DNA from: Patescibacteria group bacterium
GTDB taxonomy: Bacteria > Patescibacteriota > Patescibacteriia > Magasanikbacterales > GWA2-37-8
Direction: 5' to 3'
NCBI GenBank assembly: GCA_022710645.1
Contig: JAKLGL010000001.1
Span: 167,426-231,425, forward strand
DNA: 64,000 bases
Of the stretch, positions 346 through 52,928 are shown one piece after another. The position numbers and the translations under genes were made by a program. The notes under the pieces were generated by a model. It was not told the DNA's origin, searched no databases, and saw only the letters and a list, made by a program, of their open reading frames with translations. Each line of letters starts with the position of its first letter. Position 1 is the stretch's first letter.

Positions 346-3300
346 TTAGCTATTAGGGCCTCGCAGCACTTGTGAAACAGCGTCCTTGACCATTTCCATA
401 TATTTATCCAACTTACCGCCTTTTTTCAGATAATCTTCAGCTTCTTTGATAGCTTCCAAAGCTCCATCATTATCGGAATTTCTCTTTATCATTTCCATTT
501 TCACCACAAAATCATTGACTTTCTCTTTATCCAAAGGAACACCTTTTTCATTGGCTTTTTCCAAAGCCCGAGAAAGTTTTTCCAAAGCTTTGATTTCTTT
601 TTGGATATTAAACGATTCTTTTTCCGCATCTACGGAACGAATGAAATCAACTTCTTTTTGTTTTTCTTCCAGATATTTATAAGCATCTTCAAAAGCTTTG
701 GCGGTTTGTTTTTCCGCCAAGGACAAAGAAATTTCAGCAGCTCTATTGTCTAAAGCTCCGGCCGTTGCTTTCATCCTTTCCGTTTTAATTTCTTTCAACT
801 TATTCGCTTCTTCTTGTTCTGCGGCATATCTGGCCACTTCTTCTTTGGCTTTTATTTCCGCATCATGAGCTTCCTGACGGATAGCGTCCAATTTGGCTCT
901 GTCGGCCGGATCTATGGGTTTAGCCATAACTTCATCCACTGTTTTCTCTTTATTCAATATTCCCACCAATCCGACTTTTTCCGTTTTTTCAATTTCATTT
1001 TTCAGTTCTTCTATTCTTTTTACAGCTTTAAGATAATCGGCGCTATTTGTTTCTTTGGTCGCTGTATTCAATTTCAACAAAGCCTCTTGCACTTTATCTT
1101 CTCCGGCGCCGGAATAATCTTTAGCCCAACTTTGGGCTTCTTGGACATGTGGTAATTTCTTGAAAAAATCAATATTACTTTTATCCAAACTCTTGGAAGT
1201 TTTTTCAATCACATCTGTCAACGATGATTTGTCTTCCGGAGTATTTTTCAAAGAATCCTTTACCAAAGAAGCTTTTGCCAAAATGCTTTGACTTTTTTCA
1301 AGTTGTCTATTCAATTTACTCAAATTTTCCGGATCATCCACATAACGGCGTTGTAAATTTTTGAACATTTCATCTATTTCTTGTTGGCTTTGAGCTCTTT
1401 GCGTATCAAAACTTTTTTGCATTTCTTGCCATTTCATTTCACTGGCTTTGGCGTTTATTTCTTCTTGCGCAAAAGCTTTATCTATTTTTGCTTCTTCCGC
1501 TTGCATTTCCGCCAATTTTTCTTTTTCCAACAAAGCCCGGCCGGCCGCTTCTTTGGTGTCGGCTTCTTCCTGGATTTTATTTATGATTTCTTCATTACTC
1601 AAACCCAGAGAACGCATGGCGGCTTCTTTGTGCTCACCGGCTTTGGCTAAATTCTCATAATTTTCTGCAATCATTTGTTCGGTGGACAAATCCGCGTTAA
1701 CAGATTCGGCAGTCTGTCCTCCGCCGGTTTGATTTTCTATAATCTTGATATCGCTATCTATAGTTGCTTTGATATCATCAAGCATAGAAAGTGTGCTTTT
1801 GTAATTTGCCGGAACTTCATCTTCCTGCGCTTTAAGCAAAGCTGTTTTCAAATCTTTCAAACGTCCGGCCAAATTATCCGAACCTTCCACTTTGTGTTGC
1901 GAAACCACATTTTCCAAATCGTTTAATCTCTTATTTACAACATCCATTTTTTCAACAAATTTTTGAGCTTTGGCATCGCCAAAATCTTTTTGGATATCTT
2001 TCACGGTTTTCGAATAAATCTCATCCAACTCTTTTCTGTCCGCTTTATTGAACACAGATTTGTTTTCCGCTATTATTTCTTCTCCGGTCATTTTTGGCGA
2101 TTCGTTTTTTTCCAAAGACGTTTCTGTGGTAACTTTCGTTTGAGGAATTTCCACTTTAGGTTTCGGTATTTCCATTTTGTAAGTTTCCACATTATTCTCC
2201 GTAAAACTGCCGTCGGAATTCAAAACAATTTTCGCTTCCGGATTATAAATCAAACCTACGCTTTTGCCGTTTTTCCAAAGATTATTAATTTTCAAAAACT
2301 CTTTGGTTTTCTTTTCGATAAAATCATCCACATCACCCTCGTCTTTAAACCCAAATTTTTCCGGGTCAGCCTCTATCTGTCTTTTGAAGACATCATAATA
2401 TCCGTCGCCTTTATGAATAGTAGTGTCTATTTCTACCGGCTCCGGGGTTTCGGTTGTTTCGGGGATATCGGTTGGAGATAATTTTTCTTCAGCATAAAGA
2501 GGTTCTTCTTTTTCCCAAGGAAGTTTCATATCAATATCTTCATTATTTGGAGAAGTATCATTTTCCAATCCTTGCGCCATCAAAGTTCCCGAAGCCAAAA
2601 CCTCCGAACTAATTTTCCCGGACAATGAATCTATTTTTTCAGAAAGATTGGTAGAACCAAGTGTCAAACGATCAAAATTGGCGGCAAAATTATTCAAAGC
2701 TCCACCTTTTTCCAAAACTCCGTGTTCTGTCGCATTTTTTATATTTTCCAAAGTTTTTTCAATTATTCCGGCGCCTTCTTGATGTAATTCTCCAATAGCC
2801 AAACCGCCGATACCGGCGACTCGCAACAATACACCGCTGGCTTTGATAACATCAATCACTTTCTTGGTTGCAGTTTTTTCCTTATCAAGAACATTCAATT
2901 CTTTCAGGGTTTCATTAAAAGAACCGACAGTCAATTCTTTTAAAATTCCTTTGCGTGTTTCTCCACTGCTTTCTCGACGTCTGTTTTCTTTTCTTAATTT
3001 TAAATATTTTTCAGCCGCGGCCGCAGTTCCGTAAATAACACCGCGCAAAGCATATGTGCCTGTAGCGGTAGTCAAAGTATTCAGAAAATCTTTGGCAATG
3101 GAAACTCCGCTAACTTTATTTTTGGTATAATCGTCGACAATGTCGATAACGGCGGTTTGAGCTTGTTTTTCAGTATTACCTTTTTCACTGTCATATTGTT
3201 TAACCAATTTTTTCAATTTATCTTTCATTTCTTGTTTTTCTTTCGGACTACGATCGGATTTGTTGATTTCATAAAAAAGCTCGCGAGCTCTGGCGATAAA

Positions 3301-4770
3301 AGCCGTTTCTTCTTCTTTTTTCAAATTTTCTTTGCCGACAGTTTTATTTTTTTCCGATTGACGAAGTAAAGAAGCAAATTTTTCTTTTACATTGCCTTCT
3401 TCCATTTTATGTTTGTAATAATCAGCAATATCCCCTTTTCCACCTATAGCTCTGACCAAATCTGTGGCAAATTTAACACCTAAAACCGAAGTGATTGATT
3501 TGTAAGCTGTTTCAGCAGCCATATCTCTGACTTCTTCTTTTTTCAAAACTTCTTTACTCTTTCCAAAAACCTCTTTTGTTTTATTCCAAATTTTTCCAAA
3601 AAAGCCTTTCTTTTCTTCTGTCGGTAAAACAGCTTTCTCCGGAGCGACTATGGTTTTGTCAGTGATATCTTTTAAATCCGCCAAAAAAGCCGTGCGCGCT
3701 TTTTCAAAATCCCCTCGCTCTTCATCATCTTCGGCTTTTTCAACCAAAACCAAATAAGCCTTTGCCGTATCTATGAAATCGGCAGGCATGCTTTTCGCTT
3801 CTTCACCAGAAATATATTTTTGTATTTCTTTTTTGAAAATACTTGCTTCGTTTTTCAAAATTTCCAAGTCGTTTTCCTTGGTTTTTACAGTTTCAATTTT
3901 TATCTCCGGTTTTGCTTCAGGTACGACTTTGATTTCCGGTTCGGGTTTTTCTTCTTTGGCAACAACTTTGACCACAGGTTTGACCTCTTCGACTACTTGC
4001 TGAATTTCTTTTTCTTCTTCTTTTGCCGGAATCTTTTCTTGCGGTTGAACTTCTTCTTGCGGTTTTTCAACGGTTTCAACCGTGGCTAAATTGCGAATTG
4101 ATTCTTGATTTTGCACCAATTCAGCACTTAATCTCTGTAAGGTTTTTTCCATATTTTCCGCTTTTTCTTCACTCTTTACGGAAAGCAGAGTTTCTTGAGC
4201 TTGTTTCAAAGCTTTTTCTATCTTGGTATAATTATTGATGATTTTTCTCTCCGTTTCTTTCATTTCTTCTTTCTTTTTACCTTCGGATAATTTGGCGATT
4301 TCTTCGCCGTGTTTCTCGAACTTATCTCCAAACTCCGCAAATTTTTTTGTTAAATTGTTTTTTATTTCTTCCAATTTTTTCATTTTTTCTTCTTCCGCTT
4401 TTTGAGCGTTTTCTTTTTCTTTATCATTGGTTTCCGTCTTTTCCATTTCTTTCAATGCAATATTCTGAGCCGCTTCCCATAGATAACCGGCCGCTTCGCC
4501 ATAAGCTTTTACCGCGTCTTCCTTTTTTATTTCGGCCAAAATTCTTACGGCTTCGGAATTTTTATCCGCCATATCTTTTAGAGTTTTTCTAGCGCTGTCA
4601 TTTCTTTCTTTATCGGATTTTCTAACACCTTTTTTACCTTCAAAATTTTTCTCTTTGAACTTTTCTAACGCTATCAAAAAAACCGCTTCCTGTCTTTTGT
4701 CGGAAAAAATCTTTTTTGTTTCCGGAACACCACCGCCGCGTTCCGCTTTTATAGTATTGTTAGCTGGCAT
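346..4770 (-). CDS. giant K/E-rich coiled-coil protein (1474 aa), no recognisable enzymatic domain
   Basis: uninterrupted 4.4-kb ORF; heptad-like K/E-rich sequence with proline-rich spacers (EKPEPEIKVVPEAKPEIK); no signal peptide or TM helix seen. Confidence 0.8.
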   Translation of the reverse strand: MPANNTIKAERGGGVPETKKIFSDKRQEAVFLIALEKFKEKNFEGKKGVRKSDKERNDSARKTLKDMADKNSEAVRILAEIKKEDAVKAYGEAAGYLWEAAQNIALKEMEKTETNDKEKENAQKAEEEKMKKLEEIKNNLTKKFAEFGDKFEKHGEEIAKLSEGKKKEEMKETERKIINNYTKIEKALKQAQETLLSVKSEEKAENMEKTLQRLSAELVQNQESIRNLATVETVEKPQEEVQPQEKIPAKEEEKEIQQVVEEVKPVVKVVAKEEKPEPEIKVVPEAKPEIKIETVKTKENDLEILKNEASIFKKEIQKYISGEEAKSMPADFIDTAKAYLVLVEKAEDDEERGDFEKARTAFLADLKDITDKTIVAPEKAVLPTEEKKGFFGKIWNKTKEVFGKSKEVLKKEEVRDMAAETAYKSITSVLGVKFATDLVRAIGGKGDIADYYKHKMEEGNVKEKFASLLRQSEKNKTVGKENLKKEEETAFIARARELFYEINKSDRSPKEKQEMKDKLKKLVKQYDSEKGNTEKQAQTAVIDIVDDYTKNKVSGVSIAKDFLNTLTTATGTYALRGVIYGTAAAAEKYLKLRKENRRRESSGETRKGILKELTVGSFNETLKELNVLDKEKTATKKVIDVIKASGVLLRVAGIGGLAIGELHQEGAGIIEKTLENIKNATEHGVLEKGGALNNFAANFDRLTLGSTNLSEKIDSLSGKISSEVLASGTLMAQGLENDTSPNNEDIDMKLPWEKEEPLYAEEKLSPTDIPETTETPEPVEIDTTIHKGDGYYDVFKRQIEADPEKFGFKDEGDVDDFIEKKTKEFLKINNLWKNGKSVGLIYNPEAKIVLNSDGSFTENNVETYKMEIPKPKVEIPQTKVTTETSLEKNESPKMTGEEIIAENKSVFNKADRKELDEIYSKTVKDIQKDFGDAKAQKFVEKMDVVNKRLNDLENVVSQHKVEGSDNLAGRLKDLKTALLKAQEDEVPANYKSTLSMLDDIKATIDSDIKIIENQTGGGQTAESVNADLSTEQMIAENYENLAKAGEHKEAAMRSLGLSNEEIINKIQEEADTKEAAGRALLEKEKLAEMQAEEAKIDKAFAQEEINAKASEMKWQEMQKSFDTQRAQSQQEIDEMFKNLQRRYVDDPENLSKLNRQLEKSQSILAKASLVKDSLKNTPEDKSSLTDVIEKTSKSLDKSNIDFFKKLPHVQEAQSWAKDYSGAGEDKVQEALLKLNTATKETNSADYLKAVKRIEELKNEIEKTEKVGLVGILNKEKTVDEVMAKPIDPADRAKLDAIRQEAHDAEIKAKEEVARYAAEQEEANKLKEIKTERMKATAGALDNRAAEISLSLAEKQTAKAFEDAYKYLEEKQKEVDFIRSVDAEKESFNIQKEIKALEKLSRALEKANEKGVPLDKEKVNDFVVKMEMIKRNSDNDGALEAIKEAEDYLKKGGKLDKYMEMVKDAVSQVLRGPNS

Positions 4771-8676: not shown

Positions 8677-9067
8677 GGGGATGTTTGGTTTCGACAAAAG
8701 TTCCTTGACAAGCTGGCATACCGGGGCGGCATTTGGCCTCGATAAAAACCAAATGCATCAAATAAGTGCCAACTTATTTTCAAAAGCCAGAGCAATATTC
8801 GCTAACACGATGAGCTTTGCGCCTGCCATGGCCTAAATAAGGCTTCATGCGCCATCGTGCCGATAATACGAAGTAGTCGGTTGCGGTGTCACTTACTTCG
8901 CGTAGGTTCAAATTCGTACCGACGGATTTGTTCCGAAGGCATTTCGGTTAAGCGTTAAAAATTCCGTTGCCCCATTATTTTAACGCCGAAAACTACCGGG
9001 ACAACTATGTATGTAGAAGGTTTGTTGAAAACTTTTTGGACGCGAGTTCGACTCTCGCCATCTCCAC
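8677..9067 (+). ncRNA. ssrA: tmRNA (ssrA)
   Basis: 5' GGGGAUGUUUGGUUUCGAC and 3' GGACGCGAGUUCGACUCUCGCCAUCUCCA tRNA-like ends that base-pair as an acceptor stem; internal tag frame ANTMSFAPAMA-stop; adjacent to smpB. Confidence 0.85.
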
Positions 9068-9167
9068 GGTCGCTTTCGCGACTAGTAAAAAGTTCATAAA
9101 GTTCATAAAGTTCCGATAAATTGATTTTATAAACTTTATAACTTTAAAAACTTTATAAACTCCGCTT

Positions 9168-29831: not shown

Positions 29832-29902
29832 TCCGAGGTGGTCTAATGGTAGGACAGCAGACTCTGAATCTGCTTATCTTGGTTCGAGTCCAAGCCTCGG
29901 AA
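29832..29902 (+). tRNA. tRNA-Gln (anticodon CTG)
   Basis: TCCGAGGTGGTCTAATGGTAGGACAGCAGACTCTGAATCTGCTTATCTTGGTTCGAGTCCAAGCCTCGGAA cloverleaf; anticodon loop CTCTGAA. Confidence 0.75.
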
Positions 29903-30061
29903 CGAAGTGTAGAGGGAGCGACACAATAATTTGTGTCGCGTTTGGACGAGAACGCCGGAACGATGTTTTGCGAGTTTATTGACGAGCAAAACCGTGAGGC
30001 GGTGGCCAGACAAAATTTTCGGAAGAAAATTTTAGTCGCGGCCGATTCCAAGCCTCGGAAC
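29903..30061 (+). repeat. tRNA-Gln 3'-flank element: ~140-nt GC-rich structured core homologous to 11006-11160, then a 16-nt direct repeat of the tRNA-Gln 3' end
   Basis: ccgtgaggcggtggccagacaaaattttcggaagaaaattttagtcgcggccga is shared with the tRNA-Asp-linked copy; the repeat ttccaagcctcggaac at 30046-30061 matches the tRNA 3' end. Confidence 0.8.
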
Positions 30062-51671: not shown

Positions 51672-52010
51672 ACGTATTCAGTATATATATACTCCGTTTT
51701 TTAGTCAAAAGTTACAAAAAATTCGATTATCAACAGCCAGACAGGTTGACATATCGTCTTAAGGCTGTTAAACTTTTTTAGTCGGCTACCACTAGTCGTC
51801 AGTTATTCTTAAATTTAACGACTATGTTCGTAAATTTTGACGAGGAAAACAACACTGTTGTTTCCGAAGAAACCAACCCGGAAGTAGAAGCTCCTACTAC
51901 CGAAGAAATTCCTGTTGAAGAAGCCTCAGCCGAAGACACTTCAACCGAAGAAGCTCCTCAAGCTTAATAATCTCAAATTAAAAACCGCTCAATTGAGCGG
52001 TTTTTAATTA

Positions 52011-52195
52011 TGCAGGGAGTGCAGGAATACTCACGTCGTCCCCGCCTAAACGGGTCCTCCTTGGAAAACCTTCTGGTTTTCCAATACCTTTCCTCCAAAA
52101 AGAGAAACCTTTGTCGGTTTCTCCCTTCCCTATTCGATTCCTACATACTCCAAAATAAATTAAAATCCACCCATTTGGGGTGGATTTTAATTTAG
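52011..52195 (-). repeat. tRNA-Trp 3'-flank insert: hairpin, ~165-nt sequence of unknown function, 17-nt direct repeat of the tRNA-Trp 3' end, terminator hairpin
   Basis: gcagggagtgcaggaat occurs at 52011-52027 and at 52195-52211, the latter inside the tRNA. Confidence 0.75.
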
Positions 52196-52266
52196 CAGGG
52201 AGTGCAGGAATCGAACCCGCGCTAAAGGTTTTGGAGACCCTTGTACTACCATTATACGAACTCCCT
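52196..52266 (-). tRNA. tRNA-Trp (anticodon CCA)
   Basis: reverse complement AGGGAGTTCGTATAATGGTAGTACAAGGGTCTCCAAAACCTTTAGCGCGGGTTCGATTCCTGCACTCCCTG folds as a cloverleaf. Confidence 0.75.
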
Positions 52267-52305
52267 ATTTTTTAAAGGACAGACCAAAGATCTGTCCTTT
52301 AAAAT

Positions 52306-52470
52306 TTATTTGGTTTCTTTATGTACGGTGTGTTTTTTGCAATGCAAGCAATGTTTTTTCATTTCCAATCTATTTTTCAATGTTTTTTTGTTTTTATTGG
52401 AAAAATAATTGGTGCGCTTACATTCCGTGCATTCCAATTTAATCATGTTGTCGGCATTTTTTGACGGCAT
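52306..52470 (-). CDS. rpmG: 50S ribosomal protein L33
   Basis: [54 protein letters not shown] (Zn-ribbon L33); terminator hairpin at 52270-52305; absent from the ORF track because shorter than 60 aa. Confidence 0.8.
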
Positions 52471-52502
52471 ACAAATATAAATTATTTTTTAAATTAACTC
52501 GG

Positions 52503-52614
52503 AGCCGTTGAGCGGATTTGAACCGCTGACCACCTCCTTACTCCCAAGCACTAGACCATCCGGGTCAGTGCGGGACTTCCGCATGGAGGTGCGGCATTTA
52601 CCCCTCATCATTTG
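52503..52614 (-). repeat. duplicated 3' half (~38 nt) of tRNA-Thr(GGT) plus a ~74-nt spacer; does not fold as a tRNA
   Basis: gagccgttgagcggatttgaaccgctgaccacctcctta occurs at 52503-52541 and again as the 3' half of the intact tRNA at 52614-52652. Confidence 0.75.
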
Positions 52615-52687
52615 AGCCGTTGAGCGGATTTGAACCGCTGACCACCTCCTTACCATGGAGGTGCTCTACCAACTGAGCTACAACGGC
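52615..52687 (-). tRNA. tRNA-Thr (anticodon GGT)
   Basis: reverse complement GCCGTTGTAGCTCAGTTGGTAGAGCACCTCCATGGTAAGGAGGTGGTCAGCGGTTCAAATCCGCTCAACGGCT; perfect cloverleaf. Confidence 0.8.
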
Positions 52688-52763
52688 ACAAATGGTGAGG
52701 GGCCAACTAAATTTTATTTCCTGTAACAATATTGCTACCGGGGTTACAACGGCACATATAACC

Positions 52764-52837
52764 GAGCCGTCTAAGGGACTCGAACCCATGACATGCTGTT
52801 TACAAAACAGCTGCTCTACCAACTGAGCTAAGACGGC
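52764..52837 (-). tRNA. tRNA-Thr (anticodon TGT)
   Basis: reverse complement GCCGTCTTAGCTCAGTTGGTAGAGCAGCTGTTTTGTAAACAGC...GGGTTCGAGTCCCTTAGACGGCT. Confidence 0.75.
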
Positions 52838-52846
52838 ATTTGGGTG

Positions 52847-52928
52847 TGGGTGGGGAAGGTTTCGAACCTTCGAAGGCGGAGCCAGCAGATTTACAGTCTG
52901 CCCCATTTGACCACTTTGGTACCCACCC
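52847..52928 (-). tRNA. tRNA-Tyr (anticodon GTA), long variable arm
   Basis: reverse complement GGGTGGGTACCAAAGTGGTCAAATGGGGCAGACTGTAAATCTGC + long V-arm + GAAGGTTCGAAACCTTCCCCACCCA. Confidence 0.8.

Follow-up and report, generated by a model that had tools for sequence, protein, structure and literature searches.

Short structured elements lie directly behind several tRNA genes of a Patescibacteria group bacterium and recur behind tRNA genes in many other genomes of the Candidate Phyla Radiation (CPR). The DNA considered here is a window of 64,000 nt (the whole stretch that was analysed), which corresponds to positions 167,426-231,425 of the forward strand of contig JAKLGL010000001.1 in assembly GCA_022710645.1. 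Each element is located directly 3′ of an intact tRNA gene on the same strand and is followed by a second copy of that segment of the tRNA which extends from a loop (the T-loop or, in the case of tRNA-Thr, the anticodon loop) to the 3′ end. The elements come and go as units, and several unrelated core families adopt this one architecture. On balance, we lean towards regarding them as non-autonomous mobile mini-elements that target the tRNA loops of CPR/Patescibacteria and leave the tRNA intact. The T-loop and the anticodon loop are also the two sublocations used by tRNA-integrating elements. The elements are widespread in CPR bacteria and match no description in Rfam, among phages or plasmids, or in the searchable literature.

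Repeats behind the tRNA genes of the window

The window is an ordinary piece of CPR/Patescibacteria chromosome with 37% G+C, which contains housekeeping genes only. Six tRNAs and one tmRNA were detected in it by ARAGORN and Rfam. An earlier note, which had been made from the sequence alone, reported that four of the six tRNA genes carry duplications of their 3′ ends, and this was confirmed: such repeats are present behind tRNA-Asp and tRNA-Gln as well as behind tRNA-Trp and tRNA-Thr(GGT). Behind the two repeat-free genes, tRNA-Tyr and tRNA-Thr(TGT), the next tRNA starts within 8-10 nt. The frequency is above that of random loci, as a repeat of at least 15 nt from the last 40 nt of a locus, placed within the following 350 nt, was found at only 73 of 20,000 window loci (0.37%) in a random control. 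The idea that the tRNA genes form a hotspot of insertion is likewise supported. The repeats start exactly in the T-loop or anticodon loop and mostly end at the tRNA 3′ end. Behind the tmRNA (8677-9069, plus strand; tag ANTMSFAPAMA), both a 3′-end copy and an element are absent, and the longest repeat there is 6 nt.

The Asp/Gln family

The inserts behind tRNA-Asp and tRNA-Gln are two copies of one element, in which blocks of 22 and 55 nt are identical and the middle hairpin is wholly different. A search pattern taken from these conserved blocks and run on a species-representative genome collection gave 61 matches, ~42 of them in CPR lineages (Paceibacterota, Saccharibacteria, and Magasanik-, Moran-, Vogel-, Yanofsky-, Nomura- and Taylorbacteria); the matches outside CPR are evidently due to chance and lie inside open reading frames (ORFs) of high-GC genomes. 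All CPR matches with enough upstream flank (38/38) are located 31-114 nt behind a tRNA on the same strand, and at least 15 tRNA types are represented. Elements of this main family were also seen on contigs L010, L026, L035, L051 and L052 (relatives and other loci carry L numbers throughout), which had been binned as Gammaproteobacteria, Bdellovibrionales or 'Candidatus Fimivivens'. Because L010 is nearly identical to the Magasanikbacteria contig L038, the non-CPR bin labels probably stem from mis-binned CPR contigs.

In the T-loop class, the intact tRNA is followed by an optional terminator, an arm, a folded core, and finally a second copy of the tRNA, which covers the T-loop and everything 3′ of it. 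In the main family, the arm consists of the 12-14 nt directly before the core and is the reverse complement of the T-loop and the 3′ strand of the T-stem of the element's own tRNA. It tracks unusual T-loops (ACTTGAA where the tRNA has TTCAAGT, and AATCGGA where it has TCCGATT). Of 9 specific positions in the arm, 6.30 agree with the element's own tRNA, as compared with 4.25 +/- 0.18 in 2000 permutations. About 60% of the members carry an extra antisense copy of the acceptor strand, which yields an acceptor-like helix. The second tRNA copy starts at the T-loop 'CGA', 38-42 nt past the core, in nearly all main-family copies; that of tRNA-Gln lies inside the element and is exact at 30047-30061, or extends over 30043-30061 with one mismatch. 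A reading of the arm as the tRNA's own 5′ strands, i.e. as part of a degenerate tandem tRNA, was rejected for the T-loop class because of the reverse-complemented asymmetric T-loops and because of L004 and L039, in which the arm continues into the acceptor strand; for the Thr class, described below, the arm is accepted as a native tRNA 5′ strand. No separate promoter precedes the elements, and tRNA-Asp has a promoter of the form TTGACA-17-TATAAT. The latter (11288-11316, minus strand, 23 nt upstream) agrees with the sigma-70 consensus at 12 of 12 positions, which is notable for a CPR genome.

The fold of the main family was derived by RNAalifold and a covariance model from 40 members, and covariation was counted on 50 model matches. 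The predicted structure is a three-way junction, in which the arm would pair with the second tRNA copy to give the closing stem. P2 comprises CGCC/GGCG, a GGA/GA internal loop, and a variable hairpin often with tandem G.A, while P3 consists of an NCCY/RGGN helix and a variable hairpin. In the main family, 94.7% of the cells are paired, 24 of the 25 pairs have changed on both sides, and the covariation score of 0.611 compares with 0.18 after shuffling and at most 0.11 with slid partners. The junction nucleotides are invariant across phylum-level CPR lineages. Since G.U exceeds A.C on the tRNA-sense strand (14 versus 5), that strand appears to be the folded one, either as RNA or as single-stranded DNA. 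A kissing loop between hairpins hp1 and hp2 (AAUAA/UUAUU in the Gln copy) was considered and rejected (3.2 versus 3.09, with 208 of 1000 permutations as high or higher). In both the T-loop and the anticodon-loop class, the stem around the core is closed by the arm and the second copy. The earlier view of the inserts as unrelated sequences or scars of excision is not supported, because they are conserved, covarying elements found in ~40 CPR genomes.

The insert behind tRNA-Trp

An exact 17-nt repeat of the tRNA-Trp 3′ end (gcagggagtgcaggaat) is located at 52012-52028 and 52196-52212, and the two copies are separated by 166 nt. Each is then followed by a terminator-like hairpin (52163-52190 and 51976-52009), in agreement with the earlier description. 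The arm of the insert is the reverse complement of the tRNA-Trp T-loop, the 3′ strand of the T-stem and part of the acceptor strand, and it pairs with the downstream copy via a U.G wobble. A full homolog of the Trp core is present behind tRNA-Trp in L116, a CPR contig of 434 kb, with compensatory changes in the hairpins, and is followed there by a tRNA-end copy and the start of a duplicated terminator. The syntenic L085, which has 82% nucleotide identity and the same tRNA-Trp sequence, retains no more of this element than the arm and the initial 20 nt of the core, and the synteny between the window and L085 breaks at this remnant.

Membership of the Trp element in the Asp/Gln family was rejected, as the main-family covariance model misses it; the insert is a separate family with the Asp/Gln architecture and a different core. 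Other small cores with the arm-and-copy layout were found behind tRNAs in L006, L011, L043 and L068, and the group is defined by architecture rather than by one sequence. At ~1560-1575 of L116, the Trp-family core contains GAGGAAAGUCC, which we take to be identical to the CR-I motif of RNase P RNA. An identity of the Trp element as RNase P RNA was rejected: no RNase P match was obtained in 51900-52700 at E-values up to 10, and the window and L116 have only GAGGAAAG of this string in common, so that the likeness is probably due to chance. In addition, a 47-aa acidic ORF (MFVNFDEENNTVVSEETNPEVEAPTTEEIPVEEASAEDTSTEEAPQA; 51824-51967, plus strand), with an imperfect repeat of 27 nt inside it, is convergent with the Trp element and uses the same bidirectional terminator.

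The insert behind tRNA-Thr(GGT)

The second copy of the 3′ part of tRNA-Thr(GGT) is present as claimed, with a length of 40 nt instead of 38 and a spacer of 72 nt. Tyr, Thr, Thr and rpmG are tightly packed in L085, and alignment with this contig shows that the ancestral tRNA-Thr(GGT) of the window has been split: the upstream match ends at nt 9, and the downstream match resumes at nt 35. The gap holds a 51-nt insert, the intact tRNA and a 72-nt element, after which the displaced nt 35-75 follow; this second copy runs on into the ancestral downstream flank and the rpmG leader. On the upstream side, a displaced fragment spans 6 nt of leader and tRNA nt 1-9, and the alignment to the uninterrupted L085 stops there. 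This fragment had been noticed as a 10-nt copy of the tRNA 5′ end; the copy exists and is actually a 15-nt repeat with 14 of 15 positions matching. The 51-nt insert, which is partly conserved in L074, carries ggcccctcaccattt, a strand complementary to the beginning of the downstream Thr element.

Within the 72-nt element, GCACCTCCATG at 52582-52592 is a sense copy of tRNA-Thr(GGT) nt 24-34; these 11 nt (CATGGAGGTGC), which repeat the 5′ strand of the anticodon stem, were overlooked in the earlier note. The arm of the Thr class is the native sense 5′ strand of the anticodon stem, not antisense. Neither ARAGORN nor Rfam (RF00005) called a tRNA at the downstream copy, in line with the statement that it does not fold as one; together with the spacer, however, a consensus tRNA-like fold is predicted, which lacks a D arm, has an acceptor stem of 4 bp and carries a hairpin of 40 nt in its anticodon loop. 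The 72-nt element and the copy are ~92% identical in L074 and L098, in which the hairpin changes are compensatory, and the Thr element is missing from L085, L094-97 and L099. Thus, the Trp and Thr inserts are not the unrelated spacers for which they had been taken: both have homologs (in L116 for Trp, in L074 and L098 for Thr), and each possesses an arm that corresponds to its own tRNA.

Gain, loss and decay

L098 carries the Thr element and the 40-nt copy, whereas L094-97 and L099 have the bare tRNA with flanks that are otherwise alike (one single-nucleotide polymorphism); within one population, a unit of 112 nt is thus cleanly polymorphic for presence and absence. Likewise, L085 has a truncated Trp element, while those of the window and L116 are intact. 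With regard to the Asp and Gln elements, exact-protein look-ups for strain polymorphism returned only contigs with the gene spacing of the window at these places. Two main-family elements behind one tRNA were found at five loci, and the tRNA-proximal copy scores higher in all five (proximal/distal bits 127.6/28.6, 118.9/16.6, 109/55, 107.5/89 and 103/98). The better preservation of the proximal copy is expected if newcomers enter at the functional tRNA and displace older copies.

At positions where the tRNA and the second copy differ, the arm sides with the tRNA in 11 cases, never with the second copy, and in 2 cases with neither. This result implies that the second copy decays uncompensated and looks like a by-product, and it is missing or interrupted in L005, L009, L017 and L033. 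Selection on the pairing between arm and second copy was rejected, since compensatory change was not seen. The flanking repeats are defined by the tRNA and measure 11-21 nt, with lengths up to 47 nt or more. In 26 of 29 elements, they stop at the tRNA 3′ end or up to 4 nt beyond it; in the window Asp element, L006 and L040, the repeat extends 32-70 nt through the terminator, and the situation in L116 is similar. A mechanism that copies tRNA 3′ ends, which the earlier note had offered as a second possibility, is conceivable, and the long terminator-spanning duplications (Asp, L006, L116) look like in-place copying.

The two Asp terminators (10968-10995 and 11163-11190) have equal stems, and their loops, GCAT and ATTC, are reverse-complementary at 3 of 4 bases. 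Equal stems were also observed for the two terminators in L006 (~3000-3030 and ~3160-3190), where the loops AGTA and TACT are reverse-complementary at 4 of 4. This inversion of the terminator loop reflects either strand switching or a flip of the hairpin loop.

Other sequences vary at the same cluster in relatives. The gap between rpmG and tRNA-Trp contains, in L074 (~2160-2500, minus strand), an ORF that by eye resembles a four-helix-bundle '23S rRNA intervening sequence protein', and, in L094-L099, an unannotated ORF of 148-150 aa (e.g. L094 1770-2216). In L111, an ORF that matches PF05635 (643-1005) lies upstream of tRNA-Thr(TGT) and rpmG. As these ORFs occur at this cluster in relatives and not in the window, they provide further evidence of an insertion hotspot. 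The spacer between tRNA-Tyr and tRNA-Thr(TGT) is 6 nt in L094 versus 96 nt in the near-identical L095-L097, and the longer spacers consist of AT-rich 'taaatttt'-type repeats; the second tRNA spacer of the tRNA-Tyr/Thr(TGT)/Thr(GGT) cluster in L094 contains a run of N. In L100-L104, which belong to another CPR lineage, a 160-nt spacer between tRNA-Tyr and rpmG is GC-rich and dense in hairpins (AGCGCTAAGCGCT..., CTGCCTGCCGGCAGGCAGG...), and a tRNA-end copy was not found in it.

Mobility genes and database searches

The inserts have a length of ~50-170 nt and contain no ORF. An integrase, recombinase or transposase, for which the earlier note had suggested a search, was found neither in the 64-kb window nor recurrently near the 42 loci. 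When 52 window ORFs and the ORFs near the elements were scanned against Pfam, no integrase, transposase or reverse transcriptase was obtained; the sole RVT_3 match came from an ORF set that also gave an RNase H match. When the ORFs of the 42 loci were clustered, no protein family recurred near the elements. Stand-alone GIY-YIG ORFs of 79-90 aa adjoin CPR tRNA genes in L065 (3046-3318, minus strand; L081 is the same contig) and L109 (1237-1476, plus strand). These ORFs, with Pfam E-values of 1e-15 to 1e-17, lie outside the elements, and they could encode a candidate trans-acting nuclease or be unrelated.

Rfam 15 was searched with the window, and only the tRNAs and the tmRNA reached the gathering threshold; for the Trp/Thr and Gln regions, matches at E-values up to 10 were at chance level and far below the gathering scores. 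In IMG/VR, the strict pattern matched 0 viral contigs, and a covariance-model scan of 80 of the 114 loci matched by the relaxed pattern gave 0 matches. No match was obtained by blastn against GenBank phages and plasmids. No description of the elements was found when the literature was searched by concept and with the conserved strings. A recent paper on group I introns in patescibacterial tRNAs is concerned with introns in the anticodon loop; neither T-loop sites nor duplications are mentioned in it.

The tRNA cluster and neighbouring genes

The minus-strand cluster has the order tRNA-Tyr, tRNA-Thr(TGT), tRNA-Thr(GGT), rpmG, tRNA-Trp (Table 1). The rpmG product (L33) of the window has 98% identity to a 'Candidatus Magasanikbacteria' protein, and GCA_035454185.1 also encodes one window protein, with identical gene spacing. 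SmpB is among the Pfam matches in the window region around the tmRNA. An ORF of 1474 aa (window 346-4770, minus strand) has no Pfam match at an E-value of 1e-5.

Table 1. Coordinates of tRNA genes, elements and tRNA-derived segments in the window.
Feature	Position	Strand	Remarks
tRNA-Tyr(GTA)	52846-52928	minus	heads the cluster; no insert behind; next tRNA after 8 nt
tRNA-Thr(TGT)	52764-52837	minus	
Displaced tRNA-Thr(GGT) 5′ fragment	52745-52759	minus	14/15 repeat of 52679-52693
51-nt insert, 5′ fragment to intact tRNA-Thr(GGT)	52694-52744	minus	hairpin 52720-52741
Intact tRNA-Thr(GGT)	52614-52687	minus	
Anticodon-loop-class element, 72 nt	52542-52613	minus	linker aaatgatgaggggtaaatgcc, sense copy of nt 24-34, 40-nt covarying hairpin
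Second tRNA-Thr(GGT) copy, nt 35-75	52502-52541	minus	40 nt, exact; after 72-nt spacer
rpmG (ribosomal protein L33)	52306-52470	minus	anchor gene for retrieving syntenic relatives
Intact tRNA-Trp(CCA)	52195-52266	minus	
Terminator-like hairpin, tRNA-Trp/element junction	52163-52190	minus	diverged duplicate of 51976-52009
Trp element arm GGAGT-atgt-AGGAATCGAA	52133-52151	minus	inverted repeat
Trp-family core	52029-52132	minus	three hairpins; fold z-score -5.6
Second tRNA-Trp 3′-end copy	52012-52028	minus	17 nt, T-loop to 3′ end
Terminator-like hairpin behind second Trp copy	51976-52009	minus	
tRNA-Gln	29832-29903	plus	
Main-family T-loop element behind tRNA-Gln	29904-30061	plus	covariance-model score 108.5 bits
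tRNA-Asp	11191-11265	minus	
Main-family T-loop element behind tRNA-Asp	11015-11157	minus	covariance-model score 109 bits
Second tRNA-Asp 3′-end copy	10996-11010	minus	then duplicated terminator 10968-10995

Proposed mode of insertion

As mobile mini-elements, the inserts would behave as follows. An element would enter an exposed loop of a tRNA gene, and its arm would serve as a guide or homology element that recognises the tRNA sequence. The tRNA would be kept whole by a 3′ segment that is supplied or re-copied, and the old segment would be displaced downstream and decay. The conserved fold, either tRNA-sense RNA or single-stranded DNA, may be recognised by an enzyme supplied in trans. The unit of tRNA, element and fragment might then spread between genomes through ordinary homologous recombination, as both of its flanks are near-universal tRNA sequence; this would account for the identity usually stopping at the tRNA end. 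Long duplications through terminators would mark in-place events.

Several points weigh against this interpretation. We infer mobility from comparative patterns only, and precise loss via recombination between the direct repeats could mimic an insertion polymorphism. The ending of the repeats at the tRNA 3′ end in 26 of 29 cases is compatible with a tRNA segment carried by the element, or with spread through homologous recombination, but not with a simple target duplication by staggered cuts. On the other hand, the long duplications in Asp, L006, L040 and L116 look like in-place copying, and a single mechanism would not obviously give both patterns of repeat ends. The interpretation also gives no account of how an arm comes to match a newly colonised tRNA type, and the arms of L026 and of the window Trp element fit another T-stem variant better than their own. 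In addition, the conservation of the core across CPR phyla and the occupancy of 4 of 4 tRNAs with free downstream space could reflect an RNA that is beneficial to the host.

A more specific version, which is conceivable but rather doubtful, is a guide-bearing insertion system, in which a structured RNA or single-stranded DNA of ~100 nt with an arm of 10-16 nt would direct its own insertion into a tRNA loop. The arm would be complementary to the T-loop and T-stem (or to the anticodon stem), and the tRNA 3′ end would be re-templated. The reaction might be carried out by a trans-acting CPR enzyme or by the element's own catalysis, so that no element-encoded protein would be needed and insertion into tRNA loops would in effect be programmable.

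Alternative explanations

The inserts might instead be tRNA-linked non-coding RNA genes that are co-transcribed with the tRNA, in which case RNase P, RNase Z and the CCA-adding enzyme would release and stabilise a small RNA. The duplication would then be the tRNA-like 3′ end of this RNA itself, and the arm and copy would form its acceptor/T (or anticodon) helix. Such genes are favoured by the very strong covariation and the invariant junction nucleotides across CPR phyla, the location on the tRNA strand with no separate promoter, the excess of G.U over A.C on the sense strand, the predicted tRNA-like fold of the Thr unit without a D arm, and the antisense acceptor-strand copy in ~60% of the main family; the high occupancy in a streamlined genome also speaks for them. 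We nevertheless consider this explanation unlikely, because the second copy decays without compensation in the arm (11/0/2) and is missing or interrupted at the four loci named above, close relatives have a truncated (L085) or missing element, tandem arrays contain degraded distal copies, a terminator separates the tRNA from the element in many members, and unrelated cores have a common architecture.

It has also to be considered that replication template switching at the palindromes of the T-arm, anticodon arm and terminators produced the arrangement, with cores that are whatever was copied and have neither mobility nor function. The direct-inverted-direct layout of the tRNA 3′ segment, the palindromic T-loop sequence TTCGAA, the reverse-complementary terminator loops (Asp 3/4, L006 4/4) and the long in-place duplications in Asp, L006 and L116 all point in this direction. 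Template switching is improbable, however, since it cannot account for the conservation of core sequence and structure across CPR phyla and behind many tRNAs, for arms interrupted by the conserved hairpin hp1, or for identical Thr elements in three genomes, and the distribution of the elements already suggests transfer of the core between unrelated genomes or tRNAs.

The repeats were originally explained by repeated integration and excision, i.e. as attL/attR-type scars of integrase-encoding prophages or islands, which may also have shrunk by internal deletion so that the inserts would be their leftover ends. The repeats do begin in the T-loop or anticodon loop and mostly end at the tRNA 3′ end, like classical att sites, and arrays of partial tRNA copies are known beside tRNA-integrating islands. 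Independent deletions, on the other hand, would not yield an insert of ~140 nt with constant boundaries behind at least 15 tRNA types in ~40 genomes, and the hairpins covary. An integrase is absent from the window and not recurrent in the 42 loci, viral contigs, phages and plasmids gave no match, and an arm antisense to the tRNA is foreign to att sites, which together make this origin very improbable. Finally, collapsed or chimeric repeats, to which short repeats in a metagenome-assembled genome can mislead assemblers, are a practically negligible explanation, as the structures recur in dozens of independent assemblies (NCBI, ENA, JGI, Logan) and other contigs reproduce the arrangement of the window.

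Relation to known systems

Prophages and islands that integrate into tRNA genes resemble the elements in having a direct repeat from a loop to the 3′ end, an intact tRNA, an old fragment displaced downstream, and arrays of fragments. In contrast to them, the inserts described here are tiny (~50-170 nt) and ORF-less, have no integrase in cis or nearby, and combine a covarying RNA-like core with an antisense arm, one family being found at 15 or more tRNA types. The repeats start in the T-loop (or at nt 35 in Thr), as in integrase-type integrative elements, but no tyrosine or serine recombinase was found in cis or adjacent.

Miniature inverted-repeat transposable elements (MITEs), repetitive extragenic palindromes and their REPIN pairs (REP/REPIN), and palindrome-associated transposable elements (PATEs) derived from IS200/IS605 are likewise short, ORF-less, hairpin-rich, multicopy and intergenic, and are presumably mobilised in trans. 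Unlike these, the present elements lack both a short target duplication of fixed length and terminal inverted repeats that belong to the element itself; they show strict targeting of tRNA loops and a tRNA-defined repeat of 11-47 nt or more, and a cognate transposase was not found. Classification as a MITE was rejected because the only inverted repeat is that between the arm and the tRNA copy, which is derived from the target, and because the duplication is not short and of fixed length. An IS200/IS605 PATE or a TnpB omega-RNA was also rejected, as the target is duplicated and neither tnpA or tnpB nor an IS605-orfB Rfam motif was found; in addition, the 3′ tRNA copy pairs with the arm, whereas the guide at the 3′ end of an omega-RNA is free.

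The elements also recall the attP(+) hairpin of CTX-phi and the attC sites of integrons, in that a stem which imitates the chromosomal site can form between two inverted target copies lying ~100 nt from each other, a usable site is restored upon integration and allows tandem arrays, and selection acts on structure rather than sequence. The target, however, is a tRNA loop rather than dif or attI, and the element measures only ~150 nt; any link to Xer or IntI would be hypothetical, and this may be a resemblance only. Group I introns of patescibacterial tRNAs are structured RNA insertions at tRNA loops in the same phylum, mostly without homing endonucleases. The elements differ from them in lying behind a complete tRNA, in being far smaller, and in giving no Rfam group I match at an E-value of 10; with intact tRNAs upstream, no RF00028 match, and inserts of 40-165 nt, below the criterion of >200 nt, they were rejected as introns of this group.

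In CRISPR arrays and casposons, the newest insert lies beside a 'leader', which would correspond here to the tRNA body, and a segment of 15-45 nt that contains a palindrome is duplicated; some casposons also target tRNA 3′ ends. The units found here are related structured elements and not captured spacers, and cas1 or a casposase was not seen; the likeness may be taken as an analogy only. The tmRNA, mascRNA, viral tRNA-like structures and tRNA-snoRNA dicistrons offer another comparison, in which a 3′ tRNA-like helix could attract RNase P, RNase Z or the CCA-adding enzyme to a co-transcribed RNA. Unlike in these RNAs, the helix here includes a literal copy of the 3′ end of the neighbouring tRNA, which decays uncompensated and belongs to a strain-polymorphic unit.

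Implications

If the elements are what they appear to be, a large share of the tRNA genes in streamlined CPR genomes would carry uncatalogued structured parasites or accessories, and the annotation of tRNA flanks, 'tRNA fragments' and att sites in these genomes would change. The main-family core of ~100 nt would be a candidate new RNA family, possibly a ribozyme or a protein-recognition module. The arm, which tracks its target, would hint at base-pair-guided insertion without an element protein, and this would be relevant to mobile-element biology and genome engineering. The arrangement of tRNA, element and fragment would also provide a simple route for transfer across species by homologous recombination in naturally competent bacteria.

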